Below are positions 1 to 951 of a stretch of DNA of 951 bases, in pieces. Every line of letters starts with the position of its first letter. The first letter of the stretch is position 1. The stretch lies in the NCBI RefSeq assembly GCF_003334765.1, contig NZ_QOWT01000092.1; one strand, 5' to 3'. Both the position numbers and the translations under genes were made by a program. The notes below the pieces were generated by a model. That model was not told where the DNA came from and ran no database searches. It saw only the letters and a program-made list of their open reading frames with translations. The stretch is from Escherichia coli (GTDB taxonomy: Bacteria > Pseudomonadota > Gammaproteobacteria > Enterobacterales > Enterobacteriaceae).

Positions 1-7
1 GAGTTTT

Positions 8-358
8 TTACAACATTGTCAGTGAGTTAAGGCGGGATGTTTTTGGCTGACGCCAGTCCAGCTTATCGAGGAGCATTGCCAGTTGCGAGCGGGTAATGGA
101 TATCTTACCGTCACGCACCGCAGGCCAGATAAACTGACCTTCCTCAAGGCGTTTGGTGAACAGGCACAGACCATCAGCATCAGCCCACAGGATTTTAATC
201 GTGTCTCCCCGTCGGCCACGGAAGATAAACAGGTGACCGGAGAAGGGGTTATCATCCAGCACATGCTGTATCTGCTCCCCCAGACCGTTGAAGGATTTAC
301 GCATATCAGTAACGCCGGCAACGAGCCAGATACGGGTACCTGATGGGAGTGAAATCAT
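8..358 (-). CDS. tnpB: IS66-family accessory protein TnpB (IS66 Orf2-like), 116 aa
   Basis: The ORF 8..358 translates to MISLPSGTRIWLVAGVTDMRKSFNGLGEQ...GHLFIFRGRRGDTIKILWADADGLCLFTKRLEEGQFIWP, recognised from memory as the conserved IS66 Orf2-like TnpB signature. Start ATG is the complement of 356..358 and stop TAA the complement of 8..10. A strong Shine-Dalgarno GGAGG (complement of 364..368) sits 5 nt upstream of the ATG. Confidence 0.9.
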   Translation of the reverse strand: MISLPSGTRIWLVAGVTDMRKSFNGLGEQIQHVLDDNPFSGHLFIFRGRRGDTIKILWADADGLCLFTKRLEEGQFIWPAVRDGKISITRSQLAMLLDKLDWRQPKTSRLNSLTML

Positions 359-789
359 CGTCCCCTCCCGGTCAGCTCACGGATCAACACCGTGAGCAGC
401 TCTGGTGAAGGATTTTCCAGCATCATTTTACCGTAATGGAATTCCACATGGCAGGAAGCTGCACAAGCAACTGATAATGCCTCCGGAGCAGGAGCATCTG
501 TAGCACAGCGCGGGGTGTCGATAAGTTCCACTGGAACCAGAGTCGGAGAGGCCGGAAAAGATTGTGATACTGTAGGGCCTACAATAGTTGGAGGCATTCT
601 ACGAGAAATACGTCCTTCTCTTTGCCAGAGGCGTAGCCATTTAAAAATCAGGTTGTTATCAACGCCATGTTCCCGGGCCAGTTGTGCAACATTGGCATTT
701 GGTTTCGAAGCCAGTTCAACCATATGAAGTTTAAATTCATTAGAAAATATCCGGCGGGTTCCGGAGCGCCAGTCTGTAGGTTTATCCAT
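355..789 (-). CDS. tnpA: IS66-family accessory protein TnpA (orfA, predicted helix-turn-helix DNA-binding protein), about 144 aa
   Basis: The translation MDKPTDWRSGTRRIFSNEFKLHMVELASKPNANVAQLAREHGVDNNLIFKWLRLWQREG has the N-terminal HTH-like region typical of IS66 TnpA. I place the start at the ATG that is the complement of 787..789, because GGAG (complement of 798..801) lies 8 nt upstream. The ORF track begins one codon earlier at a TTG (790..792), which leaves no spacer after the SD. Stop TGA is the complement of 355..357 and overlaps the tnpB ATG. Confidence 0.85.
   Translation of the reverse strand: MDKPTDWRSGTRRIFSNEFKLHMVELASKPNANVAQLAREHGVDNNLIFKWLRLWQREGRISRRMPPTIVGPTVSQSFPASPTLVPVELIDTPRCATDAPAPEALSVACAASCHVEFHYGKMMLENPSPELLTVLIRELTGRGR
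364..368 (-). promoter_or_regulatory. Shine-Dalgarno site for tnpB, embedded in the 3' end of tnpA
   Basis: Minus-strand GGAGG followed by a 5 nt spacer and then the tnpB ATG. Together with the ATGA overlap this suggests translational coupling. Confidence 0.55.
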
Positions 790-797
790 CAATAGAA

Positions 798-801
798 CTC
801 C
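798..801 (-). promoter_or_regulatory. Shine-Dalgarno site for tnpA
   Basis: Minus-strand GGAG followed by the 8 nt spacer TTCTATTG and then the ATG at 787..789. Confidence 0.55.
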
Positions 802-802
802 G

Positions 803-840
803 TCTAATTTAGAAGGAGCTCTAATTTAGTCTGCAAGGAG
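803..840. repeat. Direct repeat pair in the tnpA leader: tctaatttag at 803..812 and 820..829, each followed by aaggag (813..818 and 835..840)
   Basis: Seen directly in the sequence: a perfect 10 bp direct repeat with a 17 bp period, lying between the putative IS end and the tnpA ribosome-binding site. Confidence 0.6.
806..836 (-). promoter_or_regulatory. Tentative sigma70-like promoter for tnpA-tnpB
   Basis: Minus-strand TTGCAG (complement of 831..836) as a -35-like hexamer, followed after 18 to 19 bp by CTAAAT or TAAATT (complement of 806..812) as a weak -10. Matches to consensus are poor, so this is only a guess at where the IS promoter lies. Confidence 0.2.
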
Positions 841-848
841 CAGGTGTT

Positions 849-874
849 ACAGACGGCATTGGCTTTACGCTTAC
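849..874 (-). repeat. Putative left terminal inverted repeat (IRL) of the IS66-family element; exact length not determinable
   Basis: The minus strand reads GTAAGCGTAAAGCCAATGCCGTCTGT from 874 downward. IS66-family termini characteristically begin with GTAA, often GTAAGCG. The inner boundary is arbitrary because the right end is not available for comparison. Confidence 0.45.
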
Positions 875-951
875 CCATAGAGGCGGATATAAGGGGAATG
901 CCGGCAGAGCAGCGGCTTGCTGAACGTCAGCGAAAAACGAAACCGCTGTTG

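Follow-up and report, generated by a model that had tools for sequence, protein, structure and literature searches.

Here, we describe a conserved hairpin in the leader of tnpA, the first gene of the insertion sequence ISEc43, which is predicted to bury the Shine-Dalgarno (SD) sequence of this gene in its stem. Structure models and the comparison of relatives suggest that its function is most likely translational repression of tnpA, especially on read-through transcripts. The window under study, a stretch of 951 nucleotides of Escherichia coli DNA, had drawn attention for a different feature of the same leader, a perfect direct repeat of 10 bp, which an earlier note had presented as a pair of candidate protein binding sites. 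We find that the two copies are better described as different parts of one conserved leader module than as equivalent sites; as a whole, this is the best explanation we can offer, and we hold it with slightly better than even confidence. The more general idea of the earlier note, a regulatory leader region, is very probably correct.

The Insertion Sequence and its Surroundings

The earlier note had assigned the region to the tnpA leader of an IS66-family element, and this assignment is right: the element is ISEc43 (RefSeq annotation: ISEc43-family transposase). The window matches IS66-family elements in 4,052 out of 5,426 complete E. coli genomes, and in plasmids, too. The left terminal inverted repeat (IRL) occupies positions 847-874 of the minus strand and reads GTAAGCGTAAAGCCAATGCCGTCTGTAA. 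The first base of the element is window position 874, where the match of independent copies begins, and the element starts with GTAAGCG. A pattern GTAAGCGT...CCGT.TG.A is common to the IRL and the right end. An intact plasmid copy (L065) comprises 2,541 bp with both ends and is bordered by a perfect 8-bp target duplication, GATTAGTC.

The coding part is likewise located on the minus strand. The gene tnpA (355-789, ATG at 789-787) encodes a protein of 144 aa with a helix-turn-helix (HTH) domain (HTH_Tnp_1, PF01527) and is the first gene of the tnpA-tnpB-tnpC operon; tnpB (8-358) encodes the IS66-family accessory protein of 116 aa. Both genes overlap in the sequence ATGA at 355-358, where the stop codon of tnpA meets the start codon of tnpB. 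ISEc43 thus exhibits the features by which the IS66 family is recognised, namely terminal inverted repeats beginning with GTAAGCG, a target-site duplication of 8 bp, the gene order tnpA-tnpB-tnpC with overlap, and the Pfam domains PF01527 and PF05717. On the mRNA strand, the leader reads GTAAGCG...CTGTAACACCTG CTCCTT GCAGA CTAAATTAGA GCTCCTT CTAAATTAGA C GGAG TTCTATTG ATG.

Outside the element, positions 875-951 (plus strand) were identified by matches, annotation and translation as a tnpC fragment of another, ISEc8-like, IS66-family element. Since this flank is a piece of a foreign IS66-family tnpC, the ISEc43 copy is evidently a nested insertion within the tnpC of an ISEc8-like element. On the plus strand, a GTG at 844 follows AAGGAG (835-840) and opens a frame which runs without a stop up to the last position of the window and has the same phase as the truncated tnpC fragment. 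The arrangement is probably coincidental, given that 3 nt are too short a spacing and that relatives do not keep the AAGGAG.

A few observations concern the history of the element. ISEc43 is a mosaic: its positions 1-400, which cover the IRL, the leader and approximately the N-terminal two-thirds of tnpA, show 60-85% identity to ISKox1 (L004) vs. 37-68% to ISEc23 (L073). From about position 500 onwards, it is 90-98% identical to ISEc23, and many matches of 92% cover window positions 1-464 only. An ISEc43-type tnpC is broken at the same place by ISEc45, a member of the IS110 family, in three E. coli chromosomes that are unrelated to each other (FORC_069, IPCEC42 and Nissle 1917; L001, 4475-7535; L002; L005), and this interrupted copy has apparently spread as one piece. 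In FORC_069, it is situated just downstream of pic, an autotransporter gene. Pathogenicity islands and virulence or resistance plasmids in E. coli, Klebsiella, Salmonella and Shigella are rich in IS66-family elements.

The Direct Repeat and its Neighbouring Motifs

Both copies of the repeat, TCTAATTTAG on the plus strand and CTAAATTAGA on the mRNA strand, were found again at 803-812 and 820-829; they are 100% identical and lie 17 nt apart from start to start. Their location between the IRL (first base 874) and the tnpA start (ATG at 789-787), all on the minus strand, had been given correctly. An exact direct repeat of at least 10 bp with a spacing of at most 30 arose in 51 out of 3000 dinucleotide-preserving shuffles of the whole window (1.7%), and in 25 out of 20000 shuffles of the 81-nt leader alone (0.13%). 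A chance origin is therefore unlikely, though not extremely so. Each copy holds a 9-bp palindrome, CTAA-A-TTAG, which is absent from the earlier note.

On the level of the leader, both copies play different parts. Copy 1 (820-829, minus strand, CTAAATTAGA) contains a hexamer TAAATT (823-828) and the pentamer TTAGA, with which the 5' arm of the hairpin begins. Copy 2 (803-812, in a feature extending from 803 to 813, minus strand) constitutes the palindromic apical stem-loop UCUA-AAU-UAGA.

It had also been noted that each copy is followed by aaggag. This holds for the copy at 803-812, where the motif follows directly (813-818), but only loosely for the one at 820-829, where it follows after 5 nt (835-840), so that the spacing is unequal. 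The motif itself is located on the non-coding strand. As a ribosome site of tnpA it was ruled out, since the genes lie on the minus strand and the mRNA reads CTCCTT instead. The plus-strand aaggag at 813-818 is the complement of the hairpin arm that pairs with the real SD. The upstream CTCCTT (835-840, minus strand) is part of a spacer of variable sequence but fixed length and shows no sign of a function; even in the 95%-identical copies L003 and L005 the motif is lost, the mRNA strand reading GATCCTT, and ISKox1-like relatives carry TTCCGG or TCCCGG.

The identity of both copies is confined to a narrow group. ISEc43 copies of at least 95% identity keep the perfect repeat, with one lineage (L006) carrying a mismatch in copy 1. 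In ISKox1-like relatives (approximately 78% DNA identity), the copies read CTAGCTTAGA and CTAATTTAGA and agree in 7 out of 10 positions; further relatives show 5-6 out of 10. In the ISEc23 clade, the direct repeat is absent and the apical stem is CTGT/ACAG. The 10/10 identity of the copies is specific to the ISEc43 lineage and most likely incidental. A simple origin may be suggested: TTAGA recurs because the outer and the apical stem use the same pentamer, which would thus be needed twice, and two more substitutions in copy 1 (TAGCTT to TAAATT) would have completed the identity.

The Leader Hairpin of ISEc43

On the mRNA strand, window positions 823-793 form a quasi-palindrome of 31 nt. The predicted hairpin consists of a 9-bp outer stem, UAGAGCUCC / GGAGUUCUA, 1x1 internal loops and a 4-bp apical stem, UCUA / UAGA, and its stem ends 3 nt before the ATG. 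The 5' arm (815-823, minus strand) is UAGAGCUCC, the CUCC of which pairs with the SD. The 3' arm (793-801, minus strand) is GGAGUUCUA and carries the tnpA SD itself, GGAG at 798-801, located 8 nt from the ATG. Both arms were found by RNAalifold and by minimum-free-energy folding, and the 5' arm also by pair counts.

The sense leader RNA reaches -31.3 kcal/mol, corresponding to z = -4.97 against 200 shuffles, and the hairpin is contained in its minimum-free-energy structure; for the antisense strand of the leader, shuffling yields z = -1.71. The 31-nt segment alone accounts for -15.7 kcal/mol, and a 56-nt leader segment containing the hairpin for -16.1 kcal/mol. A search of Rfam returned three chance-level matches only, the best with 16 bits vs. 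a gathering threshold of 36, and none of them overlapped meaningfully. We also considered the hairpin as a terminator and rejected this role, because no conserved U-run follows it on either strand in the relatives. A terminator scan of positions 700-951 gave a single terminator-like site, which lies inside tnpA and is unrelated.

Apart from the hairpin, a long-range helix around the whole leader is predicted, in which GUCUGUA of the inner IRL (848-854, minus strand) pairs with UACAGAC in tnpA codons 5-7 (770-776). This pairing is not evident in ISKox1-like relatives.

Conservation among Relatives

The left ends compared here come from records of E. coli and of plasmids, a set of 45 loci with a single genome for each species, contigs with graded TnpA homologues, and distant plasmid members. 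The earlier note had proposed to look for conservation of the direct repeat in related leaders. Among approximately 30 distinct relatives, this repeat is perfect only in the ISEc43 lineage and drops to 5-7 out of 10 positions outside of it; conserved instead is the 31-nt quasi-palindrome around the SD, i.e., the inverted hairpin. What does not vary is an inverted repeat, AGAGCTCC-(13 nt)-GGAGYTCT. Copy 2 is situated between its arms, and copy 1 supplies the TTAGA at the foot of the 5' arm.

Sixteen clade-A leaders align without gaps over 85 nt from the IRL to the ATG. Their RNAalifold consensus is the hairpin, with one pair occurring as G-C (10 leaders), G-U (5) and A-U (1). In all unique leaders (29 out of 29), the hairpin is found at the same place and ends 1-4 nt before the start codon. 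Three clades can be aligned column for column and nevertheless have different stems: GCTCC/GGAGC in the ISEc43/ISKox1 clade, CGCCC/GGGCA in the Serratia/AwEntero group, and CGCCC/GGACA with an apical CTGT/ACAG in the ISEc23-like clade. Over 30 distinct sequences of the three clades, 84% of the alignment cells are paired vs. 25-39% when the partners are slid. Five pairs are changed on both sides in these 30 sequences (C-G in 14 and G-C in 14; A-U in 12 and G-C in 9 at the apical pair, which covaries between clades; U-A in 19 and C-G in 4). The covariation score of the 30 sequences is 0.218 vs. a shuffled mean of 0.122 and was reached in 0 out of 500 shuffles, a statistic that is inflated by relatedness and reflects few clade-level events. 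Within the ISEc43/ISKox1 clade alone, covariation is not above the controls, because the stem hardly varies there.

The same arrangement extends to leaders of other sequence. A fourth leader type has the stem AGGTGCCCAC/GTGGACACCT at the same place. Four or five distant IS66-type plasmid elements (L066, L067, L068, L070, L071), with a TnpA identity of 33-41%, have sequence-unrelated leaders, the long hairpins of which again reach up to or across the start codon, as in GGAUAGUGGACACC...GGUGGACGCUAUCC-AUG of L067. These modelled start-codon hairpins suggest a family-wide design. Across the leaders, the distance from IRL to ATG ranges from 81 to 92 nt, and the helix keeps its position relative to the start codon, not to the IRL, in five or more leader types. 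A scan of metagenome contigs with a degenerate pattern, intended to collect stem variants without bias, contributed little, as it recovered mostly identical ISEc23 and ISEc43 copies; the free stem positions were paired in 69% of the cells in IS contexts vs. 49% in chance matches.

Two individual cases may be added. At the top of the hairpin (803-815), three asymmetric positions read T, A, C in ISEc43, whereas ISKox1 (L004/L007) has their exact reverse complement, G, T, A. The apical segment thus appears to be inverted between both lineages, as would result from template switching at a quasi-palindrome. The left end L046 from Trabulsiella odontotermitis has retained the clade-A 5' arm and loop (TAACTTAGAGCTCCGTCTAATTTA), but in place of the 3' arm, an unrelated sequence precedes its ATGGAA start; by its sequence, this left end is a decayed or chimeric one without the hairpin.

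Predicted Occlusion of the Ribosome-Binding Site

For transcripts that carry the 5' arm, the computed probability of an unpaired SD is 0.00. Opening the region from -15 to +5 of ISEc43 costs 13.9 kcal/mol in the presence of the 5' arm vs. 7.9 +/- 2.0 kcal/mol in shuffled leaders. The opening cost exceeds that of shuffled leaders (200) in 9 out of 9 elements, distant ones included, with z-scores of 2.6 to 8.7. For RNAs that start at least 7 nt after the hexamer of copy 1, each of the 12 elements computed shows a lower cost, 4-9 instead of 10-21 kcal/mol. We find together what characterises an SD-sequestering hairpin, i.e., an SD within a stable stem next to the start codon, compensatory changes across clades, and an occlusion that goes beyond base composition. 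Taken as a whole, the account of a leader module with an SD-occluding hairpin is somewhat favoured by the balance of probabilities.

The following mechanism is proposed. Transcripts containing the 5' arm, either because they read in from outside or because they start in the IRL, would have their ribosome-binding site locked in the stem. For this reason, tnpA would be poorly translated, and probably so would the translationally coupled tnpB and tnpC. If the hexamer of copy 1 served as the -10 element of a weak promoter of the element itself, the native transcript would begin within the 5' arm or behind it, and the block would be partly avoided. The computed opening costs speak for such an escape. 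In the case of ISEc43, the models let us expect a partial escape at best, because the SD of the 5'-truncated RNA is predicted to pair again, this time with GCGCUCCG in tnpA codons 8-10, which leaves a probability of 0.01-0.11 for the unpaired state.

This segment GCGCUCCG (761-768, minus strand) represents a second anti-SD-like sequence, which pairs with CGGAGU when the 5' arm is absent. It is apparently specific to ISEc43.

Promoter Candidates in the Leader

According to the earlier note, the repeat overlaps with tentative -35 and -10 elements. One part of this stands, as copy 1 contains the best, albeit weak, -10 candidate; a sigma-70 promoter as such does not emerge, since a consensus scan of positions 700-951 on both strands (spacing 16-18 bp, at least 9 out of 12 matches) gave 0 sites. 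The consensus scan of this region showed no sign of an antisense promoter or of a terminator linked to the leader, either.

The candidate hexamer (TAAATT, 828-823) belongs to a pattern TA[AG]NTT, of which T1, A2, T5 and T6 are invariant in 30 out of 30 leaders from three clades. T1 and A2 lie outside the stem. The positions T1, A2 and T6, which are the key positions of a sigma-70 -10 element, are thus conserved in the relatives. With a crude weight matrix, the top candidate in ISEc43 is GTAACA-16-TAAATT (7.1 bits, 8 out of 12 matches). All candidates are weak by this measure, and none of the positions is decisive; the hexamer ranks first in 11 and among the top three in 23 of 27 leaders. In other clades, a TGn just upstream of the hexamer resembles an extended -10 element, and it is absent in ISEc43. 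We infer from these patterns that the hexamer of copy 1 may act as a -10 element.

Further observations touch the control of transcription. ISKox1-like leaders (L004, L007, L054, L056, L059) carry a GATC (Dam) site, GGGATCG, approximately 3-10 nt upstream of their TAGNTT hexamer, and ISEc43 has none. In IS10, IS50 and IS903, the regulation involves Dam sites within the transposase promoter. At the right end (e.g., L001, minus strand from 387 onward, and L065, 5020-5056), the sequence TTGACG is found where the IRL has CTGTAA. It matches the -35 hexamer in 5 out of 6 positions, points inward and runs antisense to tnpC; as a sequence match, it is possibly part of an antisense promoter. A junction promoter formed across abutted ends was considered and dropped, since the right-end TTGACG faces inward.

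RNA Hairpin or DNA Operator

Conservation of the palindrome may also be viewed on the level of DNA. Among the mismatches in the stem, there are 27 sense G-U cells vs. 41 sense A-C cells, with clade A leaning towards the sense strand and clade B (ISEc23-like) towards the antisense strand. In the ISEc23-like clade, it is the antisense strand that folds much better (-17 to -23 vs. -7 to -13 kcal/mol). Because the mismatches favour no consistent strand, the strictly conserved feature is, as far as the alignments tell, a palindrome at the DNA level.

Such a constraint would be expected if the nested palindrome AGAGCTCC-n-TCTAA-n-TTAGA-n-GGAGYTCT were a double-stranded operator, bound by a dimer or tetramer of TnpA or by a host factor, by which the left-end promoter is autoregulated. 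The four alternating TTAGA/TCTAA pentamers would then be half-sites, and copies 1 and 2 two adjacent sites. The palindrome CTAA-n-TTAG within each copy is in good agreement with this, as is the fact that ISEc43 and ISKox1 have the arms in common but not the central base. TnpA has a suitable HTH domain (PF01527), its N-terminal part is inherited together with the leader as one module in the ISEc43 mosaic, and small HTH proteins of IS1 (InsA), IS2 (InsA) and IS911 (OrfA) are repressors which bind the element ends. However, in five or more sequence-unrelated leader types, the helix always lies directly against the start codon and includes the SD, with a distance from IRL to ATG that varies between 81 and 92 nt; this fits a translational role better. 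The structures of the distant members are long, bulged and imperfect, as is typical of RNA and not of an operator. A palindrome of 29-31 bp is long for a single HTH dimer, and the right end lacks a counterpart. We consider an operator unlikely for these reasons.

A related reading makes the palindrome, as double-stranded DNA or as RNA, the specific recognition site of the element's own TnpA. The left-end module of IRL, leader palindrome and N-terminal TnpA would then co-evolve and be exchanged as a unit between IS66 lineages, an exchange that is suggested by the mosaic structure of ISEc43. We regard this as quite improbable. If true, recognition of the palindrome would be the first defined function of an IS66 TnpA and would amount to autoregulation at the left end.

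Possible Functions of the Direct Repeat Itself

Two further explanations, other than the SD hairpin preferred here, assign a function to the direct repeat itself. One is a two-state RNA switch, in which the two copies pair with each other in the nascent RNA (CUAAAUUAGAG / UUCUAAAUUAG, the loop containing CUCC) and, in competition with the SD hairpin, transiently leave the SD free. In most clade-A members, this alternative hairpin is indeed the predicted fold before the 3' arm is made (-3 to -6.5 kcal/mol), and 82% of its cells are paired in the 16 clade-A leaders vs. 29-57% when slid. It is, however, much weaker than the SD hairpin (-12 to -18 kcal/mol), its pairing is an automatic consequence of TTAGA and TCTAA being conserved, none of its pairs has double-sided changes, and it does not rise above the shuffles by any measure. 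Leaders of the ISEc23-like clade cannot form the alternative hairpin. We judge a switch of this kind to be very improbable.

The other explanation, close to that of the earlier note, takes the direct copies as subterminal sites at which the transposase (TnpC) or an accessory protein assembles the transposition complex; although the repeat is perfect, lies within 55 bp of the IRL and is kept in ISEc43 copies of at least 95% identity, this is hardly credible, since the right ends of at least 20 elements contain neither a copy nor a TTAGA/TCTAA pentamer in their inner 100 bp, the tnpC stop approximately 30 bp from the right tip leaves no room, the direct repeat decays to 5-7 out of 10 positions among ISKox1-like relatives and is missing from the ISEc23 clade, and the relationship that is maintained is the inverted one. 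With the motif missing from the right end, where the earlier note had suggested looking for it, and the copies diverging outside the ISEc43 lineage, the reading as direct-repeat protein sites largely fails. A search for the repeat motif over 7.9 kb returned the two leader copies as the only matches.

Comparison with Known Systems

To our knowledge, very little is established about the control of the three-gene operon of IS66 elements, and our literature search found no description of leader or hairpin regulation for this family. A conserved hairpin that occludes the ribosome-binding site would explain how IS66 elements stay quiet when they are inserted downstream of active genes, and mutations in its stem would offer a simple handle on their expression.

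With respect to protein-mediated control, InsA of IS1, InsA of IS2 and OrfA of IS911 are small HTH proteins from first open reading frames, which occupy the terminal inverted repeats of both element ends and act as repressors of transcription or transposition. TnpA of IS66 elements shares with them the HTH family PF01527. In contrast to their binding sites, the palindrome of ISEc43 lies internal to the IRL, occurs at the left end only and is centred on the ribosome-binding site.

Closer parallels are found in fold-back structures of RNA. In IS10 and IS50, transcripts from outside reportedly carry both arms of an inverted repeat and thus hide the ribosome site, while the native start lies between the arms. 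This resembles ISEc43, where a -10-like hexamer is situated at the foot of the 5' arm and the opening cost drops by approximately 8-10 kcal/mol for RNAs that start after the hexamer. The resemblance has limits, as the promoter match of ISEc43 is weak and its truncated RNA is still predicted to pair the SD with the coding segment.

In ISPpu9, secondary structure in the 5' UTR of the transposase mRNA regulates expression (PMC8450116). The element belongs to another family and employs two small RNAs in addition. In IS200, an inverted repeat at the left end sequesters the SD of tnpA and blocks binding of the 30S subunit, which was demonstrated by toeprinting and reporter fusions (PMC4513863). The inverted repeat of ISEc43 is likewise located between the terminal repeat and the first gene and has the SD in its stem, so that position and geometry are the same, with the structure of ISEc43 being a predicted one. 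IS200 differs in that it belongs to an unrelated family with an HUH transposase, and in that it also has an antisense RNA, art200, control by Hfq and a separate terminator hairpin. By analogy with IS200, IS10 and IS50, an SD-occluding hairpin would not be conceptually new, and burying the ribosome site of the first gene would appear as an ordinary way for jumping elements to hold their own expression low.
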